Shown here piece after piece: positions 187 to 62,790 of a DNA stretch of 64,000 nt. Within the stretch, counting starts at the first letter, position 1. Each line of letters opens with the position of its first letter. Below the pieces are notes generated by a model. That model did no database searches. It was not told the DNA's origin and saw only the letters and a list, made by a program, of their open reading frames with translations. Location of the stretch: positions 26,894 through 90,893 of the forward strand of contig JBAYHI010000001.1 of the NCBI GenBank assembly GCA_041666205.1, given 5' to 3'. This stretch comes from Patescibacteria group bacterium. Lineage in GTDB: Bacteria; Patescibacteriota; Patescibacteriia; UBA9934. The position numbers were made by a program, and so were the translations under genes.

Positions 187-2085
187 ATGAACGCAATTTT
201 CTCCGCTGACTTCATCAAGAATATCGCTGACCTCGGAAAGCAGGCGAAGGGCGCTCAGGGAAAGGCCTTGGACCCCATCACAGCCTCTCTCAAGAAGGCC
301 CTGGGCCACTGGGTCGAGGACTACGTCGAGGGCATGGACCTGAAGAAGTCGTTCGACTTCGTCGGCGCGTTGATGGGAATCGTCGGGCTCCATGACCTCC
401 TCATGAAGCATCTCCCGCCCAGCGTATTGGTGCTGGTGGGTGGCTTCCTGGCGGAGATCGCCAAGACCACGATCGCGGCAAGAAACCCGATTTTCGGCCA
501 CGCCCTCGGACTCTTCCTCGACCACTCCTCAGTGGGACTCGAGGAATACTTCCAGAGGAAGAAGGCCGAAGGCAAGGACCCGGATCCGAATGAGACTCAT
601 TCCATCCTCATGGGATCGGTCGAGAAGTTCAAGATCCTCTTCACGAGCCCAAGCGGTCCGCCCCGCGATCCGCCGAGCAAGTTCCTCGAGACTCTCTCCC
701 ACCGCGAGCTCACTTTGCTCGCCGCGCTCATCAAGGCCGTCCGGGCCGAGATGATCGGCGACCCCGTCGTGGTCAAACCCGACGACGAGGATGAGGATGA
801 CGAGGAGTCCTCAGTCTTGAGCCGAGCCTGGGGCAGACTCAAGACGAACGTGCTGTGGCTCCTCTGGATCGACGAAGACGTCGACGAAGACGAGCCCGAA
901 GCAACGCTCGCCGGGAACGCCTTCCGGATCGAGGAAGCCATCAGGCACCTCATCCGTGAGGACCCCAGAACCCTCAAGCACCTGCTCAAGGCGCTTGTGA
1001 AGGACGGCGTCACGCCCGAAATGGTTGCAGAGAACCCCGCCAAGCACGGCGAGGTGTTCTACAATCTGGTGGCAACGCTCCACAACCCCGGACCCTTGTC
1101 CTGGGGTGGCGACATCGCCGACGCCCTGAACATCAAGCGCGCGACCCTCGAGTGGCTCGACAGGCGAGTCATTTTCTACGCCACGGTCGTGATCGTGGCC
1201 CTGGCGTTCGTGATCGCCGGATCGACCTTCCTGGTCTCCGGCACGCTCGGACTGCTCGGCGCCTTCGCCTGGCTCTTCGGACTCGTTGTGGGGATGTTCT
1301 TCGCTCCCGAGTCCGCGCTGGCAGGAGTGCCCATTATGATCGGCCTCGGGCTGATCTATGTGGCGCGTCTCCTGTTCCCGGCCCCCAGCCATCTCTCCCG
1401 AGGAGCCGCAAATCTTGTCGGGGGAACGAAGGTGGGTCAAAACTCGCCCATCGAAGAGGGTGCTGCACGGATCAAGAACGTCCTGCGCATCCTAGGAATC
1501 GGGTCCGGCGAACAAATCGTGCGCACACTGCTTGCGCTCGATGACTCCCACGACATCAGAAACACCGGATGGTGGCACCACGTGGCAGTCGCGGTATCGA
1601 TCGTCACGGCAGGTCTCACTGCCATCGTCCTGGGAATCTTCCTCGTCATGGGCGAGTGGAGACTTCTCCTCGACTACGATGCGGGCCTGCAACAGTACAC
1701 GCCACACTTCTACCGGGCGGCGTGGCTGTTCCTTACGAGGACTGCCTGCTTCGTGATCTGCTTCGCAGCGATCGGGAACGACATCGTATCTCGCACGAGC
1801 TGGCGGTTCACGTTCACGCAGTCGACAGCACGCACTGCCCTGGCCATCAAGTTGGTCGTCGCAGCCGCGGTCTTCGCTGCAGCCCTCTTCGTCTGCGGCG
1901 GTGGCATCGGCCTCGCGGGCGTTGGCTTGCACGTGGCCTACGGTGCAGCTCGCACTGAGGCCACGCAGGTCTACCACGACTTCCAGGGCAAGTCGTCTGC
2001 GCATCCCGAGGATGACGCACACAACAGCCCCTACGACGGCTGCACGGAATTCCCGTGCAAGCCCGAAAACAAAGGACTGAGGTAG
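187..2085 (+). CDS. Hypothetical multi-pass membrane protein with acidic D/E-rich stretches; conspicuously GC-rich with G/C at third codon positions
   Basis: 632-aa uninterrupted ORF with AGGAG 7 nt upstream of the ATG. Several hydrophobic helices sit in the C-terminal half. No recognisable family motif. The GC shift starts at the ATG and ends at the terminator. Confidence 0.6.
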   Translation: MNAIFSADFIKNIADLGKQAKGAQGKALDPITASLKKALGHWVEDYVEGMDLKKSFDFVGALMGIVGLHDLLMKHLPPSVLVLVGGFLAEIAKTTIAARNPIFGHALGLFLDHSSVGLEEYFQRKKAEGKDPDPNETHSILMGSVEKFKILFTSPSGPPRDPPSKFLETLSHRELTLLAALIKAVRAEMIGDPVVVKPDDEDEDDEESSVLSRAWGRLKTNVLWLLWIDEDVDEDEPEATLAGNAFRIEEAIRHLIREDPRTLKHLLKALVKDGVTPEMVAENPAKHGEVFYNLVATLHNPGPLSWGGDIADALNIKRATLEWLDRRVIFYATVVIVALAFVIAGSTFLVSGTLGLLGAFAWLFGLVVGMFFAPESALAGVPIMIGLGLIYVARLLFPAPSHLSRGAANLVGGTKVGQNSPIEEGAARIKNVLRILGIGSGEQIVRTLLALDDSHDIRNTGWWHHVAVAVSIVTAGLTAIVLGIFLVMGEWRLLLDYDAGLQQYTPHFYRAAWLFLTRTACFVICFAAIGNDIVSRTSWRFTFTQSTARTALAIKLVVAAAVFAAALFVCGGGIGLAGVGLHVAYGAARTEATQVYHDFQGKSSAHPEDDAHNSPYDGCTEFPCKPENKGLR

Positions 2086-17720: not shown

Positions 17721-19004
17721 TTATTTTACCATTTTTGATTTGAGGAGCTCGATTGTTTTTCGATTTACATGTTGAGCTCGCACATATTCGCGGTAATCTG
17801 GCCCGTAAATGCGTTTTTTGATTTCTTCGTCGTCGTATTGCTCGGCGATTTTATCAAGTTCTGGATCAAGTTCAGCGTCTGTCACTTCAATCTTCTCCTT
17901 TTTGGAGATTTCTTTGAGAACGAGTCCTACTTGAACGCGTCGAAGCGCGGCTTTTGCAAAATCGAGTTTCAAGTCGGCCGGTGTTTTATTGATGGATTTG
18001 AGGTAGGAATCGATTTCGAGCCCGCGATCTTTGAGTGAATGTTCAAGTTCGTGCGTCATTTTGTCGATTTCTTGATTGATCAAGAGATCCGGAATTGCCT
18101 CGAACTTGGATTTTTCTGCAAGAAGATCTAAAACCTCGCGATCCTGGCGCAAGCGTTCTTCTTCTTCATTTTCGGCCTGCATATTCTCGGAAAGCTTTTC
18201 TTCAAGCTTTGCAAGACTCTCAAGACCGACTTTCTTGGCAAATTCTTCATCGATCGTTGGGGTGTCGAGTCCGTAGATTTCATTTACAACCACGGTGAAG
18301 TCAATATTTTGACCTGCCAGATGCTTTTGGTAGTGATCTTTTGGAAACGGAAGCGTGAATGTGCGCTCTTCGCCTTCTTTTGCGCCAAGGATTTTCTCAA
18401 CAATGCCGTCGATGTAGTGAGGTTCTGCTGTATAAATGCCGTGATTGCGACCTTCCCCACCTTCGAGTACAACACCCTCTTTTTTCATGGTGAGATTCAC
18501 AACCGCTTTATCGCCCTTCACAAGAACTTCACCTGCAACTTTACGGGTTTCCTTGGTTTGCATGGTTGCAAGCTCTTTTTTGGCAGATTCAATGGTTTCT
18601 TTGCTTGGTTTTGTGTCTTTCTTTTCAACAGAAAGCTTTTCGTAATCAGCAAGTTCCAAAACCTTTGGGAAGAGCGCGACTTCGGCCGTGATGACCATAT
18701 CGTTGCCTGGGGCCATTTTGACTGCGTTAAAATATGGCTGACCAACGGTTTCAAGGTCTTCTTTGAGCATGGCGTCCACAAATGCAGCGCGAATGAGCTC
18801 TTCGGCAGCAGCTTCGAGGAGTTTCATTTCCCCAACGCGCTGTTTTACAACTTCATAGCTTGCTTTTCCCGGTCGAAATCCAGGAATCGAGCTTTCTTCG
18901 CTCATATGTTCAGAAGCGTGTTGCATTCCAGCTTCAACGGTTTCGGCAGGAATCGTGAGCGTAAACGTGGCTTTATTGTCTTTGATTTCTAATGTGTATG
19001 GCAT
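17721..19004 (-). CDS. tig: Trigger factor
   Basis: 427 aa with a ribosome-binding N-domain (GFRPGKAS motif), a PPIase-like middle domain and a C-terminal domain. Confidence 0.9.
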   Translation of the reverse strand: MPYTLEIKDNKATFTLTIPAETVEAGMQHASEHMSEESSIPGFRPGKASYEVVKQRVGEMKLLEAAAEELIRAAFVDAMLKEDLETVGQPYFNAVKMAPGNDMVITAEVALFPKVLELADYEKLSVEKKDTKPSKETIESAKKELATMQTKETRKVAGEVLVKGDKAVVNLTMKKEGVVLEGGEGRNHGIYTAEPHYIDGIVEKILGAKEGEERTFTLPFPKDHYQKHLAGQNIDFTVVVNEIYGLDTPTIDEEFAKKVGLESLAKLEEKLSENMQAENEEEERLRQDREVLDLLAEKSKFEAIPDLLINQEIDKMTHELEHSLKDRGLEIDSYLKSINKTPADLKLDFAKAALRRVQVGLVLKEISKKEKIEVTDAELDPELDKIAEQYDDEEIKKRIYGPDYREYVRAQHVNRKTIELLKSKMVK

Positions 19005-19044
19005 AGATTTGTTGCAAGTCTAGGCGAAAATACGAGCCCTGTCA

Positions 19045-19546
19045 ATGATTTATCGTCTAAATGCGCAAACGCCGGCCCAGAGTTGGGTCGGCGCGGAGGA
19101 GGAACAGAAGAGACTAGATGGTCAGCTGCCTGGATGCGGAAGCACTGGTGCAGACTTCATCCTTGCAAACCGCCACGATGTACACGAAGTCCTTGCTAAA
19201 GGTTTCTCCCGCGAACACCCTGTGGGTTTCTGTCGATGCCGATTCTCCCGGAACCGACACTCGCTCGTGCACCGGATGCCCTTTCATCTTGTTCACGAGA
19301 GCTCGAGCCAGATCCTCCGCCATCTTTTTGGTCTCATCGCGTTCGCGCGTGAGCGCGTCGATCCTCCGGCGCAACCACCACACCACGAAGATGCTGAGGG
19401 CGACGTAGAAGAGGGAGAAGATGAGGGAAAGGGTTTGCATGGCAAAATCCTCCAAGCATGCAGGTTTGTCCTGCGGTGAGACGTGCGTCGACGAATCGAC
19501 GGTCATAGAGATGACGAAAAAAGATACCAAGAAAACACCGCCACGT
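19045..19546 (-). other. Unit 1 of a GC-rich tandem cassette: promoter (TTGACG-17-TATCTT at 19521-19549), structured 5' UTR, small-TM-protein CDS, terminator hairpin
   Basis: The unit is repeated at 19547-20060. The non-coding flanks are nearly identical while the coding DNA has diverged. Confidence 0.7.
19114..19440 (-). CDS. Small N-terminal single-TM protein (108 aa), cassette paralog 1
   Basis: GGAGG sits 7 nt upstream of the ATG at 19440. An N-terminal hydrophobic helix is followed by a charged helix (RRRIDALTRERDETKKMAEDLARALVNK) and a Cys/His-containing tail. The ORF-track start at 19530 lies upstream of the RBS and is less likely. Confidence 0.6.
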   Translation of the reverse strand: MQTLSLIFSLFYVALSIFVVWWLRRRIDALTRERDETKKMAEDLARALVNKMKGHPVHERVSVPGESASTETHRVFAGETFSKDFVYIVAVCKDEVCTSASASRQLTI

Positions 19547-20060
19547 CAACGTTTCATTCATCTAAATGCGCAAACGCCGGCCCAGCGAGATGGGCCGGCG
19601 CGGAGAGTGATGAGGAGTGCCTAGTTGGCCGGTCCCAAGAATTTTGCCTTGGTGCAATGACCGTCTGAGTCGTGGGCTTCGGCCACGATGTCAAGGTAAC
19701 CACCTTCATGCATCACATCACGTCCAGCGGGGTGGATAGTGAAGCGATCTTCCCCATCAATGCGTCTGGGTTGAGCACCGCAGACATCTATTCCGTTGAT
19801 CTGGTTGATGAGCGCCTGGGCCAAGACGTCAATAATCTGGTTGGCGAACTTGAGCTCGTCTTCGACCTGCTCCACCCTTTTACTGAAGGAGTAGATGATG
19901 ATGAGGCAGAGGATGCCGATGACAAGGGCGAATCCGGCGAGAAGGGTGTTCATGGTAAGTCCTCCAATGCAGTGTGGGCGTCGATGATTCGACGGTCATT
20001 GAGATGACGAAAAAAGATACCAAGAAATCATTGCCGCGTCAATCGCGCAATCAAAAAACC
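19547..20060 (-). other. Unit 2 of the GC-rich tandem cassette (promoter TTGACG-17-TATCTT at 20014-20042)
   Basis: Same architecture as unit 1. A ccggccca...tgggccgg terminator hairpin sits at about 19575-19605. Confidence 0.7.
19621..19953 (-). CDS. Small N-terminal single-TM protein (110 aa), cassette paralog 2
   Basis: GGAGGA upstream of the ATG at 19953. An N-terminal TM helix precedes LAQALINQINGI, which aligns with LARALVNKMKG of paralog 1. Identity to paralog 1 is only about 25-30% by eye. Confidence 0.6.
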   Translation of the reverse strand: MNTLLAGFALVIGILCLIIIYSFSKRVEQVEDELKFANQIIDVLAQALINQINGIDVCGAQPRRIDGEDRFTIHPAGRDVMHEGGYLDIVAEAHDSDGHCTKAKFLGPAN

Positions 20061-20092
20061 ACCAGCAATGTGCCGGTGGTTTTTATTTCGCG
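20058..20092. terminator. Intrinsic terminator of hppA (bidirectional hairpin)
   Basis: aaaaaaccaccagcaatgtgccggtggttttta. Confidence 0.65.
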
Positions 20093-20093
20093 A

Positions 20094-22094
20094 TTAAAGC
20101 ACTGCAACGATGAGCGGGACGATGATCAAAGCGACGATATTCACGATTTTGATCATTGGGTTAATGGCTGGACCAGCTGTATCTTTGTAAGGATCGCCAA
20201 CGGTGTCGCCTGTTACTGCTGCTTGGTGAGCAGGCGAATGCTTACCACCGTAATTTCCTTTTTCAATGTATTTCTTGGCGTTATCCCATGCTCCACCGCC
20301 TGTGGTCATGGAGATTGCAAGGAAAAGACCGGTAACAATCGTTCCAATCAAGAGTCCACCAAGTGCGGCAGGCCCAAGTAAGAATCCAACGGCAATTGGC
20401 ACAACCACTGGCAAGAGCGCTGGCACAAACATCTCTTGGATTGCGGCTTTTGTCACAATGTCCACTGCTTTGCTGTAGTCTGGCTTTTCTTTTCCTTCCA
20501 TGATGCCTTTGATTTCGCGGAACTGACGTCGAACTTCTTCAACGACTTTTCCAGCTGCTTTGCCAACGGCTTCCATTGCGTATGAGGCAAAAAGGTAAGG
20601 AAGCAGTCCACCAATGAAGAGCCCGGCAATAATGTATGGGTCAGCAAGGTCGAATGCGACTTTTGCTCCGTGAAGCGCAAGTTCTTCGGTATAACTTGCA
20701 AACAAGACTGTAGCGGCGAGCCCAGCGGAGGCAATTGCATATCCTTTTGTGACGGCTTTGGTTGTATTTCCAACTGCGTCGAGTGGATCGGTCACTTCGC
20801 GTACTTCTTTTGAAAGTTCAGCCATTTCTGCAATTCCACCAGCGTTATCGGTAATTGGACCGTATGCGTCGAGCGTCACAATCATGCCTGTGAGCGAGAG
20901 CATTGCCATTACGGCCATTGCTGCGCCATAAATATCGGCAAGCATGTAGGAAGCAATAAGACCAGCAACAATCACAAGGACCGGAAGCACGGTTGCGCGC
21001 ATGGAAAGCGCGAGTCCTGAGATGACGTTTGTGCCATGGCCGGTTTGTGAGGCTTCAGCAACGCGCTGAACTGGCTTGTATTCGGTTGAGGTGTAGTATT
21101 CGGTAATCACAACCATCAGTGCAGTAACGGCAAGCCCAACAATCAAGGACCAGTAAATATTCATAGCGTTTACGCCTGCAATATCTCCCAAAATCCATTG
21201 TGTCATTGGATAAAATGCGATAGCGGAAATCACGCCAGCAACAATGACTCCTTTATAGAGCGCGCGCATAATCGCGCCAGTTTTTCCAACTTTCACAACC
21301 AAGCTTCCAACAATCGAGGCAATAATTCCAACCGCGCCGATTGCAAATGGGAACGTAATAATGGCTTCAATGTTTCCAAAGACCTGCGCACCAATAATCA
21401 TGGAGGCAATCATGGAAACTGCATATGTCTCAAAGAGGTCCGCTGCCATTCCAGCGCAATCCCCTACGTTATCGCCAACGTTGTCGGCAATGACGGCTGG
21501 GTTGCGTGGATCGTCTTCTGGAATTCCTGCTTCTACTTTTCCGACGAGGTCAGCACCAACGTCTGCGGCTTTTGTGAAGATTCCACCGCCGAGTCGTGCA
21601 AATACGGAAATGAGTGATCCTCCAAAACCAAGGCCAACAAGTGCGCCAACGTCTTTTGTGATGAGATAAAAGCCAACCACACCAATGAGCCCAAGCGTCA
21701 CGACGAATAATCCTGTAACGGATCCGCCACGCACGGCCAAATTAAGCGCAGGAGACAATCCTTTTTTGGCAGCTTCGGCTGTGCGCACATTTGCGCGAAC
21801 CGAAATCATCATGCCAATGAATCCGGTAAGCCCTGAGAGGATTGCTCCCACCAGGAACCCACAGGCCATGGTCCAGTTTAGGAAAAAGCCAAGAAGAAGG
21901 AAGATAACAGCGCCAACCATGCCAATGGCACGGTACTGACGCGAGAGGTAGGCGTTTGCTCCTTCTTGAATGGCCAGAGCAATACCTTTCATTTTTCCTT
22001 CCCCAGCGGGCTGGCGAAGAATCCAACGAATTAGAAGACCTGTATAGACAATCGCTGCGGCTGCAACGATGAGTGCAATGATGGAAATACTCAT
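20094..22094 (-). CDS. hppA: Membrane-bound proton-translocating pyrophosphatase (V-type H+-PPase)
   Basis: 666 aa with about 15 TM helices and H+-PPase motifs ([38 protein letters not shown]). Confidence 0.9.
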
Positions 22095-59799: not shown

Positions 59800-60608
59800 T
59801 CACCAGCCTGGAATTTCACCGGCGGTGATTTTTTTGTCCGGCTGGACTTTTTCCCCTCGTAGAACGCGATCGGCCACAACCACAGCGCTCAAGACTTCCG
59901 TGACGTACCTTGTGCCCTGACTCTCATCCTTTCGGATTCGAGCCGGGCCCTTGTTGTACGCCTTGAGCCCAAGCTCACGACTCTGGAAACTCGTTTCGTA
60001 GACTCGAAGGGTTTCGAGTCCGATCACGATGTTTTCCAGATCGCTTGCTGTGGCATCGACCTCATCTTGCCCAAGTTTTCTCGCCGCGACCGCCTTTGCC
60101 TGGTCTGGCGCAAGGCTGATTTGCATGAGGCCTTGGCTTAGTTGCTTACAGCCATGGCTCTCATGTGTGATGATTCCGAGCGCAAATGCGAGTGGGTAGC
60201 CCGAGATTTTCGCAGCCTTTTCAATGACCGCGCGCTTCCTGAGGCACTTCCTCACGGATGCTTCCTCTCCGAGTCGATCCCGATTGTAGATTCGGGTGAC
60301 GCTTGGGAGGATGCTCGTATCGAAGGTTGAAACGCCCCTATGGGGCACAACCTTCTTGGTCGTCGGGTTTTGGGGCTGAGGTTTTTTTGCGCTCTTCGGC
60401 TTCTCGGCCGGCTTCTGCTTCACGACGGAAATCTGTTCCGCCGTAGCGTGTCGCCGGTCGACTCGAACGGTGACGGTTTCCTCTACAGCGGGCGCTGCGA
60501 GGACGATTTCTTCCTCCGCGGGTGCGGAGAAGGCTCCATAGAAGGCGAGGGCTCTGGCCATGAAATAGACCAGGCCGATCATGAGGCAGAAAATGAAGTT
60601 TTTCACTT
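59800..60608 (-). CDS. Secreted lytic transglycosylase (SLT domain), GC-rich
   Basis: SLT family-1 motifs (ITHESHG ... GLMQISL). The proposed start is GTG at about 60608, preceded by GGAGA, giving signal peptide VKNFIFCLMIGLVYFMARALA. The ORF-track ATG at 60693 is an alternative. The GC rise coincides with the ORF. Confidence 0.65.
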
Positions 60609-60679
60609 CAATCTCCGATTTGGGGTAGGATTTTTGAGGGGAAATTTGAAAAGGGCAGGGCAATAAAATATCACAAAAA

Positions 60680-60712
60680 AGCCGTTTTGTCAACGGCTTT
60701 TGTGTAATATTG
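60680..60712. terminator. Intrinsic terminator for the methyltransferase gene
   Basis: aaaaaagccgttttgtcaacggcttttgtg. Confidence 0.6.
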
Positions 60713-62121: not shown

Positions 62122-62790
62122 ATGGCATCCATCGCTACCCTGGCCTCCTTCCTCGGCACTATCCAGAAGTTTCTGGGCATTTCGGCAAAGGACGGCCTGC
62201 CCGACGAATTCTACCAGAGGGTGATTGACGACCCTGTATTTCGCGGGCAGTTTGTCGCATGGGCGCAGGTTGAGCTTAACTCTACGGTTATCGCCGAACA
62301 TGACTCAGCACCGGCAGCGCGGAGCCTGCAGTCGATGATCGACCGGATGCGACGGAATCCGGTAGCGGATCCTGAAACCAGGCTAACGATCCCTCAGGTT
62401 GTGTGGGTGCTCGATCGCATCGTCAATGACGTTAAGGACCACGGTGTCCAATCGCTGTCGTTGAAAAGCGAGCATTGGCGGCGCTGGGTGATCAACATGA
62501 TCCCCGAGCTCACCTTTGATCGTGATGTCGAAGACGCCTTGAATGCGTTCGTCCGAGAATTCCACCTGGAGCTCCTTGATAGTCGGCTTATCGGGCAGAA
62601 CTCAAGGGATCTTGCGAACATGGGAGTGATTCAGGTGGAGGTCGTGAACGGAATCACGATGTACAATCCCAACCTTCCGTCTGGCTCCCAGGCAACCGTG
62701 GCGAGCATCCGACGCTGGGGCGTGCGTGGGACTACTCCTGTCCAGGCCGTTTACCGCAGCGCGCTCGTCGAGAGTGGCAATTGGGCGTAA
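62122..62790 (+). CDS. Hypothetical cytoplasmic protein, GC-rich
   Basis: 222-aa ORF with GAGG 7 nt upstream of the ATG; no TM segment or recognised motif. The GC rise begins about 50 nt upstream and persists to about 62900. Confidence 0.55.
   Translation: MASIATLASFLGTIQKFLGISAKDGLPDEFYQRVIDDPVFRGQFVAWAQVELNSTVIAEHDSAPAARSLQSMIDRMRRNPVADPETRLTIPQVVWVLDRIVNDVKDHGVQSLSLKSEHWRRWVINMIPELTFDRDVEDALNAFVREFHLELLDSRLIGQNSRDLANMGVIQVEVVNGITMYNPNLPSGSQATVASIRRWGVRGTTPVQAVYRSALVESGNWA

Follow-up and report, generated by a model that had tools for sequence, protein, structure and literature searches.

Tandem small-gene units with conserved flanks and strongly diverged coding regions at the hppA-tig junction of a Patescibacteria genome

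Phage "morons" are reportedly open reading frames (ORFs) with their own promoter and terminator and an atypical GC content, lodged between two conserved genes. The vsp, vlp and vsa loci of Mycoplasma are said to form tandem arrays in which a conserved 5' non-coding region and signal peptide precede divergent bodies, and the LDR loci of E. coli (the Ldr/Rdl type I toxin-antitoxin system) reportedly consist of ~500-bp tandem repeats encoding ~35-aa peptides, with an antisense RNA. Horizontal-transfer hot spots without mobile-element genes have been documented between core genes (Oliveira et al. 2017, PMC5635113), and in the tandem lpl paralogs of S. aureus a short conserved segment was proposed as the homologous-recombination site that shuffles the variable parts (Tsuru & Kobayashi 2008, PMC2568036). 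Here we describe a locus that shares features with each of these: a cassette of two ~500-bp units, arranged head-to-tail on the minus strand between the genes hppA and tig, in a 64,000-nt stretch of contig JBAYHI010000001.1 from a Patescibacteria group bacterium (assembly GCA_041666205.1). We call the whole stretch the window, and all coordinates are window positions unless a locus is named.

The cassette is a real feature. Its two ORFs and a third at the same junction in the closest available relative (locus L013; tig 77% and hppA 91% identical) make up a family of predicted membrane-anchored proteins without known relatives, known so far in a narrow group of Uhrbacteria. With moderate confidence, we read the pair as the duplicate of a single ancestral unit whose proteins diverged very fast, its regulatory blocks being kept alike by common regulation and, probably, by short-tract gene conversion.

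Regulatory flanks and coding regions of the two units

Aligned separately for their coding and non-coding parts, the units proved more alike in their regulatory DNA than in the genes it flanks, as a first-pass annotation of this DNA had claimed. The promoter and leader core is identical at 58/66 positions (88%) and the 3' flank at 50/61 (82%), whereas the codon-aligned coding sequences (CDSs) of the two genes, ORF1 in unit 1 and ORF2 in unit 2, are 47% identical (49/54/39% at the three codon positions), a contrast with a Fisher p of ~1e-13. The proteins share 27/102 residues (26.5%), in line with the 25-30% first estimated, and BLASTP aligned them at 26% over 54 aa (E = 3e-7). Two blocks are perfectly shared: 27 nt from the downstream half of the promoter spacer through the first leader stem, and 25 nt made up of the hairpin 3' arm plus its tail. 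The earlier description of the non-coding parts as near-identical fits these blocks but is overstated elsewhere, with diverged spacers and a 20-nt indel in the leader. Searched for as patterns, 49 nt of the leader and 25 nt of the hairpin tail were each found at exactly two places in the window and in none of 100 shuffles.

Every element of the units lies on the minus strand. The promoters, at 20014..20042 (unit 2) and 19521..19549 (unit 1), combine TTGACG, a 17-nt spacer and an extended -10 element, TGgTATCTT; both came from a promoter scan (9/12 matches with the TG in unit 2), and -35, -10 and TG are the same in the two units. The spacers are TGGCGGTGTTTTCTTGG and CGGCAATGATTTCTTGG, and the differences between the promoters are confined to their upstream half. 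Each leader contains two adjacent stem-loops, GTCAT-N4-ATGAC and CGTCGA-N4-TCGACG (19979..20008 in unit 2, 19486..19515 in unit 1), whose stems are invariant between units; all three substitutions in the stem-loops fall in loops. These palindromes have no other occurrence in the window, and the fold energies of the leaders are unexceptional relative to shuffles (z = -0.7 and -1.8). Assuming a start ~7 nt after the -10 element, the leader would measure ~74 nt in unit 1, matching the ~70 nt proposed earlier, but ~54 nt in unit 2.

Reading the sequence further, we found a GGAGG ribosome-binding site at 19961..19965, 7 nt before the ATG of ORF2 (110 aa; 19621..19953; NCBI WCT24_00280, hypothetical protein), and another at 19449..19453, 8 nt before the ATG of ORF1 (108 aa; 19114..19440; NCBI WCT24_00275, hypothetical protein). 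The shared promoter, ribosome-binding site and ORF lengths of the first-pass annotation were thus recovered in both units. Downstream of the ORFs stand GC-rich hairpins (CGCCGGCCCA/TGGGCCGGCG; 19575-19600 and 19070-19093), each followed by the tail TTTGCGCATTTAGA and directly preceding the next promoter. In unit 2 the hairpin with its tail (19561..19600) is an inverted repeat (I10) with 10-bp arms, 100% complementary, around a 6-nt loop, folds at -27.4 kcal/mol (z = -3.35) and is a probable terminator. Its unit 1 counterpart with the identical tail (19056..19093) has one A/C mismatch and a 4-nt loop and folds at -19.5 kcal/mol (z = -2.1). The GC-rich hairpin proposed as a terminator is therefore present in both units, but the T-tract after it is weak (TTTGCGCATTT) rather than classic and a simple terminator scan made no call. 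Judged from these elements, the units look like monocistronic promoter-to-hairpin modules. Rfam returned no family above threshold in or near the cassette, and the promoter scan of 18800-20300 gave no promoter-like site on the plus strand.

An additional ATG lies inside the first leader stem-loop (19502-19504 in unit 1, 19995-19997 in unit 2). It is in frame with ORF1, and the gene call of the Joint Genome Institute (JGI) starts there, giving 130 aa; in unit 2 its frame differs from that of ORF2, with which a 39-codon ORF opened there would overlap, and in L013 it is absent. For these reasons we dropped it as the start of ORF1; translation probably does not begin there. The hairpin tail was also considered as a dif/Xer-like site, an idea dropped because its arms, judged by eye only, are not inverted repeats.

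The cassette is bounded upstream by the intrinsic terminator of hppA (20054..20084, minus strand; inverted repeat I4, 14-nt arms, 93% complementary, then T6) and downstream by the tig promoter (TTGACA-17-TAGACT; 19017..19045, minus strand), which is conserved in L013; the -35 region of the latter (TTGACAGGGC) resembles those of the unit promoters (TTGACGYGGC). Between these boundaries the order is hppA (20094-22094, minus strand), unit 2, unit 1, tig (19004-17721, minus strand), with a start-to-start spacing of the repeats of 493-507 bp; every element of the tandem arrangement first described was found in place. The neighbours are housekeeping genes, in the order M23/LysM peptidase, hppA, tig and DUF167, and no phage, integrase, recombinase or transposase gene was found among the ORFs adjoining the cassette. 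Mis-assembly is unlikely because the same population yielded an independent JGI contig with the two units in the identical arrangement; over 2847 nt the sequences differ at a single position, inside hppA. As a separate observation, the tig promoter (TTGACAG...TATTTTCGCYTAGACTT; 19017-19045 compared with L013:5950-5980) is 72% identical over 47 nt between the two species, far above the cassette flanks, and is a candidate native housekeeping promoter of Patescibacteria.

A protein family and its relatives at the junction

ORF1 and ORF2 are paralogs of one predicted architecture, an N-terminal transmembrane (TM) helix followed by a long helix and a small β C-terminal domain. In ORF2, Kyte-Doolittle analysis placed the TM helix at residues 3-21, with lysine and arginine only after it. 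All three family members carry one hydrophobic 19-mer within residues ~3-23, with no lysine or arginine before it and 3-6 in the next 15 residues, so that the positive-inside rule predicts an N-out/C-in anchor with a cytoplasmic body. AlphaFold models, built on a three-sequence alignment, gave a helix at residues 2-52 in both proteins, followed by strands 88-94 and 100-106 in ORF2 (mean pLDDT score = 63) and by three C-terminal strands in ORF1 (mean pLDDT score = 61). The TM helix of the first-pass annotation is thus predicted in both proteins, but of its Cys/His tail only one Cys is conserved across the family.

The L013 unit occupies the junction in the same orientation and comprises TTGACA-17-TAAATT, a leader starting TTCGTCA, GGGAG, a 144-aa ORF and a CCGACC/GGTCGG hairpin followed by CGTTTGGCTTTTAAATG and the tig promoter. 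Its protein has the same build, with a helix 23 residues longer, and retains the family motifs L-A/G-x-A/V-L/I-V/I-N-x-I/M-K/N-G and I/V-V-A-V/E...D-x-G-x-C-T-x-A-K. A profile of ORF1 and ORF2 ranked it first of 2766 non-self reading-frame segments from the window and the fetched loci (E = 1e-6, 26 bits). Frames are intact in all three ORFs, with a Shine-Dalgarno sequence before each start; conservation is lowest at codon position 3 in all three pairwise comparisons, and GC content at third codon positions (GC3) peaks in the minus-strand ORF frame. Because an intact-frame homolog exists at the same locus in another species and position 3 is least conserved, we argue that the ORFs are translated; broken frames or lack of conservation in relatives, either of which the first-pass annotation would have taken as refutation, were not what L013 showed. 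The antisense strand was discarded as the coding strand, the GC3 and codon-position patterns favouring the minus strand.

Database searches returned nothing significant for ORF1, ORF2 or the ORFs inserted at this junction in L013 and two other loci (L006 and L009, below) in Pfam, NCBIfam, PHROGs or PADLOC. The nearest matches were holin_LLH (TIGR01673), at 14.1 bits against a cut-off of 34.75 (E = 0.048) and to the TM helix of ORF1 only, with no match to ORF2; PHROGs at E >= 0.008 throughout; and, in PADLOC, a type I specificity subunit at E = 0.038, over the coiled-coil region only. A profile search of PDB sequences gave nothing significant, and the best Foldseek match of the ORF2 model, itself of low confidence, in the PDB had E = 2.8. 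A word-indexed search of 5.8 billion clusters retrieved only ORF1, ORF2 and a truncated gene call of the L013 ORF, and when 1.84 billion representatives were searched exhaustively in HMMER with the profile of both proteins, the only matches were the proteins themselves and one 2023-aa Ig-repeat protein. Neither blastn/tblastn against phages and plasmids nor a degenerate-peptide scan of viral contigs found a relative; the leader core was not found in genome or viral contigs, nor the hairpin tail in viral contigs. Since the L013 homolog scores only 26 bits against the profile, relatives as distant would be missed in large libraries, and "orphan" here means without relatives above ~30% identity.

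The match to the Ig-repeat protein (P0003, a large metagenomic protein of surface type) runs through a strand-turn-strand motif of 27 residues (IVAxAxDSDGxxxKxxF; E = 2e-5) that occurs five times; at residues ~1390-1416 and in four more repeats within its Ig-like domains, the protein's motif INIVANAQDSDGTVAKVEF resembles the C-terminal motif of ORF2, LDIVAEAHDSDGHCTKAKF. We treat this as a resemblance of 27 residues rather than homology. If real, it would argue for an extracellular β domain, contradicting the charge-based topology.

The links first suggested to toxin/immunity, bacteriocin, holin or surface-variation modules accordingly found no backing in Pfam, NCBIfam, PHROG, PADLOC, PDB or fold matches. 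A toxin/immunity pair is further disfavoured by the paralogy and common architecture of the two proteins, and surface variation by a charge distribution that predicts a cytoplasmic C-terminal domain.

We compared the junction across relatives with a tig-protein scan of species-representative genomes, whose tig loci, each a single representative, carry the L numbers used here. The scan returned Candidatus Uhrbacteria and unclassified Patescibacteria metagenome-assembled genomes (MAGs), in which gene order around tig is conserved; a metagenome scan with tig gave nothing closer than 66% identity. Measured from hppA or, where that gene is lacking, from the peptidase gene, the gap to tig is 80-225 bp in most relatives and larger at four loci: the window (1089 bp, two units), L013 (700 bp, one unit), L006 (1602 bp, an unrelated tandem pair and a third ORF) and L009, identical to L027 (911 bp, a 178-aa orphan ORF). 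Copy number at the junction, which had been expected to vary, is thus 0, 1 or 2 units among the relatives.

At L006 (4390-6000; JABJOE010000002.1, a Candidatus Uhrbacteria MAG, the same sequence as L019 and L020), a tandem pair on the opposite strand encodes two 105-aa orphan ORFs (5721-5404 and 5259-4942) that are 36-40% identical, and between its units the promoter block is 85% (65 nt) and the hairpin block 95% (43 nt) identical. Each 105-aa ORF is preceded by TTGACG-17-TATGTT (ATTGACG-17-TAGGTT in the first unit) and followed by a GCCCGCC...GGCGGGC hairpin. The third ORF (4817-4449) encodes a 122-aa coiled-coil protein. The insert at L009 (5081-5985) carries its 178-aa orphan ORF (5750-5214) on the strand opposite to tig. 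Neither insert has DNA or protein similarity to the window cassette; a common origin of the window and L006 flanks, both of which run hairpin-GCxTTTGC-TTGACG, was considered and dropped, as blastn gave no significant similarity.

The same core-gene interval therefore holds different accessory genes, with three unrelated contents over four loci. Because these are unrelated orphan inserts with raised GC3, the hppA-tig junction appears to be a small hot spot of horizontal transfer that lacks mobile-element genes. In Patescibacteria both horizontal transfer and genes for DNA uptake are reported to be common (PMC12455944). Separately, hppA is missing in L005, L008, L011, L012, L014 and L022-L024, where tig directly follows the M23/LysM peptidase gene; the interval would therefore vary even in whether it holds the gene for the proton-pumping pyrophosphatase.

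The composition of the inserts sets them apart. ORF1 and ORF2 have GC3 values of 0.74 and 0.67, against 0.39-0.52 in ordinary genes of the window, whereas bulk GC differs modestly (0.54 in the cassette, 0.47 in the window); the cassette is therefore far more GC-rich than its surroundings, as first described, at GC3 but not in bulk. At L013 the ORF has a GC3 of 0.745 (neighbours 0.43-0.475), at L009 0.59 (neighbours 0.37-0.44) and at L006 0.55-0.67 for the 105-aa ORFs; all insert ORFs exceed their neighbours except the third ORF of L006 (0.455). The composition is thus foreign-like, as had been noted, but a simple recent import from a high-GC donor, as drawn from it, leaves unexplained that the single unit of L013, deeply diverged in sequence, keeps the same high GC3.

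Three further GC3 outliers lie elsewhere in the window: a 632-aa ORF at 187-2085 (plus strand; 0.80), without a match in Pfam, NCBIfam or PADLOC; a 222-aa ORF at 62122-62790 (plus strand; 0.69), also without a match; and a 297-aa SLT-domain protein at 59800-60693 (minus strand; 0.61). The genome's other genes lie tightly around 0.45, and a high GC3 seems to be a mark of genes that are accessory or orphan.

Origin of the tandem pair

Under the reading we favour, the two autonomous monocistronic units would be the tandem duplicate of a lineage-specific accessory gene at the hppA-tig insertion hot spot. One unit would have been present in the common ancestor with L013 and then duplicated in the window lineage; a single-unit ancestor is suggested because L013 has one unit, whose upstream flank aligns with that of unit 2 and whose downstream flank with that of unit 1 (~55-60% identical overall), and because the gap is short in most other relatives. 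The duplication may have proceeded through microhomology of the similar -35 regions at the three unit boundaries (TTGACGCGGC, TTGACGTGGC and TTGACAGGGC of tig). The coding parts would since have diverged to the limit of detectability, and the regulatory blocks would have stayed identical under a regulation common to both copies, short-tract gene conversion most likely contributing. Each unit would be transcribed on its own from its extended -10, σ70-type promoter; the 5' stem-loops may either stabilise the mRNA or act as operator palindromes for a shared regulator, and the hairpins would terminate transcription despite their weak T-tract, insulating the next promoter and tig. The products would be membrane-tethered cytoplasmic, probably dimerising helical proteins with a small variable β domain. 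Their rapid divergence, hot-spot location, atypical composition and autonomous expression led us to a membrane-anchored conflict factor, such as one for phage exclusion, as the leading guess at function, held with low confidence.

The relative age of flanks and genes bears most directly on this history. The shared blocks are identical at 52/52 positions between the units, whereas the orthologous blocks in L013 are ~66% identical (~61% for the 27-nt and ~72% for the 25-nt block, counted by eye); either the unit flanks therefore descend from an ancestor that postdates the divergence of the two species, or homogenisation has made them alike. In tig and hppA, synonymous sites have almost reached saturation between the window and L013, with third-position identity of 46-51% and the same codon at 45-55% of conserved residues. 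ORF1 and ORF2 have 39% third-position identity and the same codon at 13/26 identical residues. To judge by these codon comparisons, the ORFs carry no signal of being younger than the species split.

Several observations weigh against the duplication reading. The 13/26 codon identity lies near the saturated interspecies level, and coding divergence older than the flanks, as in an exchange of payloads, is therefore possible. The 19 nt between stop codon and hairpin are ~42% different between units and the leader contains the 20-nt indel, so the flanks form no uniform tract but a mosaic, and purifying selection alone could explain part of their conservation. Duplication in the window lineage and copy loss in L013 are indistinguishable because only one outgroup carries the family. 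Long residence in a genome with GC3 of ~0.45 does not explain high GC3 in deeply diverged copies of two species; neither the duplication reading nor recent import accounts for this persistence by itself. Possible causes are that genes were imported repeatedly from a pool richer in GC, or that conversion at a recombination hot spot was GC-biased. The hairpins have no classic T-tract, the guess at function comes without a PADLOC or PHROG match, and both protein models are unreliable beyond residue ~55, with pLDDT below 50-60 in the C-terminal half; the transcription start, the transcripts and the topology are predictions.

Under an exchange of payloads, the blocks would be recombination anchors, at which old, diverged alleles or homologs of the ORF were swapped or stacked in tandem by homologous recombination after DNA uptake; the coding parts would then predate the flanks, and balancing or diversifying selection would act on a diversity locus. 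This is unlikely, though the most probable of the rival readings. It would account for the equidistance of ORF1, ORF2 and the L013 ORF (26.5-28.4% protein identity), for codon identity at the interspecies level, and for blocks perfect within the genome but much less alike between species; high GC3 in all family members would fit repeated import from one external pool, the unrelated pair of L006 shows the same pattern at the same junction, and recombination-fed hot spots are known (PMC5635113). Yet 15 billion proteins and the viral, plasmid and phage collections yielded neither a third allele nor a donor, the leader pattern did not occur in genome and viral collections, and perfect blocks of 25-27 nt are marginal for RecA-dependent exchange. 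Nor is synonymous divergence of the ORFs demonstrably above that of unconstrained flank positions (28-42% different, in small numbers), because third positions mostly reflect amino-acid replacement and some matches are due to chance; by our estimate, which allows for chance identities, the excess is not significant. With a single outgroup, the lineage in which the blocks changed is not assignable, and diversifying selection or payload replacement, both raised in the first-pass annotation, is not separable from old duplication with fast drift.

Constraint might also suffice by itself. An old tandem duplication could have left blocks that are fully constrained, for example as sites of a lineage-specific regulator, while the ORFs drifted under weak constraint and no homogenisation took place; we consider this somewhat less probable than payload exchange. 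The differences between units do avoid the -35, -10 and TG elements, the stems and the ribosome-binding site, falling in spacers and loops, and the diverged stop-to-hairpin stretch and leader indel imply that the flanks are not uniformly young. However, the perfect runs include positions that are usually unconstrained, namely the downstream half of the spacer and 14 nt after the hairpin, and the ~61-72% retained in L013 implies an interspecies constraint that predicts far fewer than 52/52 identities.

Extending payload exchange to the junction as a whole, one may picture hppA-tig in Uhrbacteria as an integrase-free cassette platform, with the blocks serving both as expression signals and as recombination anchors that swap or stack payloads from taken-up DNA. 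The payloads would be the TM-helix family here and the 105-aa family in L006, and GC-biased conversion would keep GC3 high. We regard this as a speculative and rather improbable proposal; if true, ultra-small symbiotic bacteria would have a diversity locus reached by a new and minimal route.

Less probable again is that the pair came in recently from a foreign source, whether as a phage moron or as the defence islet of a high-GC donor. GC3 well above the genome level, a promoter and hairpin for each ORF and the lack of homologs would be expected of it, but the neighbours are housekeeping genes with no phage or integrase gene adjoining the cassette, phage, viral and plasmid collections hold no DNA or protein match, and a deeply diverged homolog at the same junction elsewhere implies that the family is long resident or repeatedly imported. 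That the cassette is an artefact, either mis-assembled strain alleles or chance ORFs in GC-rich DNA, as its origin in a MAG, the long antisense ORFs on the plus strand and the absence of detectable homologs might suggest, is very improbable given the independent contig with the same arrangement, three junctions of unique sequence with shared perfect runs of only 25-27 nt, the intact L013 homolog with its GGGAG site and a codon-position pattern that fits coding sequence.

If the duplication reading is true, a streamlined uncultured bacterium keeps accessory genes in a fixed slot between core genes, under signals of their own, where they duplicate and their proteins diverge while the controls stay in step. 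The most interesting point is the recurrence of this pattern in the unrelated L006 pair: because two unrelated tandem pairs share it at the same junction, a general process is suggested, either concerted regulatory evolution or recombination anchored on the regulatory DNA. The units also supply candidate promoter, leader and terminator elements for Patescibacteria, a group in which almost none have been defined experimentally. The cassette does not bear on a long-standing open question.

Comparison with known systems

Several types of module differ from the cassette in defining features. Type I toxin-antitoxin systems pair a hydrophobic toxin of fewer than ~60 aa with a cis-encoded antisense RNA under its own promoter, whereas the proteins here have 108-110 aa, and no plus-strand promoter in 18800-20300 and no Rfam match were found. 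A holin or spanin would stand in a lysis cassette beside endolysin or other phage genes, but the units are surrounded by tig, hppA, DUF167 and an M23/LysM peptidase gene that is syntenic in all relatives. Nor does an integron cassette fit, which is a promoterless ORF with an attC site at its 3' end and with an IntI integrase and attI nearby: here a promoter precedes each ORF, the 3' element is a 10-bp GC hairpin of simple form (compared with attC by eye only), and no integrase-like gene occurs in the adjacent ORFs. The target of a diversity-generating retroelement differs from a near-identical template repeat at adenines, whereas the ORFs differ at all base types (47% identity) and no further copy occurs in the window, although no scan was aimed at a reverse transcriptase. 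PADLOC recognised no known anti-phage defence system.

The closer systems each share part of the pattern. Like the LDR loci, the cassette consists of ~500-bp tandem repeats, each with a promoter, a structured leader and a small membrane protein, but the coding part of LDR is conserved and ~35 aa long, in contrast to 108-110 aa with a soluble domain here. Morons correspond in their promoter-ORF-hairpin build, in atypical composition (here at GC3) and in their position between genes that are adjacent in relatives; here, however, the setting is chromosomal and housekeeping, with no prophage context and no phage or viral matches. With the vsp, vlp and vsa loci the cassette has in common a small-genome bacterium and tandem paralogs with a conserved promoter and 5' region, conserved first codons and divergent bodies, whereas here conservation extends to the 3' flank, the C-terminal domain has a predicted cytoplasmic location and there are only two copies. 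A lipobox was not found: the first 90 residues of ORF1 contain no Cys, the G-I-L before Cys16 of ORF2 does not make a lipobox, and no positive charge precedes the hydrophobic segment. Nor was a switching device seen, there being no homopolymer in the spacers, no long-range inverted repeats flanking the promoters and no recombinase among the neighbouring ORFs. The lpl genes are likewise tandem paralogs with a short conserved segment beside strongly diverged ones, but their conserved part is the centre of the ORF and the intergenic DNA co-varies with the variable ends; here the intergenic DNA is conserved and the whole ORF varies.

The junction as a whole compares with the hot spots of Oliveira et al. 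The scale here is smaller (0.7-1.6 kb, 1-3 genes), and species of an uncultured clade were compared rather than strains. What they have in common is a syntenic core-gene interval, empty in most relatives, whose orphan genes are compositionally atypical, differ between at least three lineages and have neither an integrase nor a transposase gene next to them.

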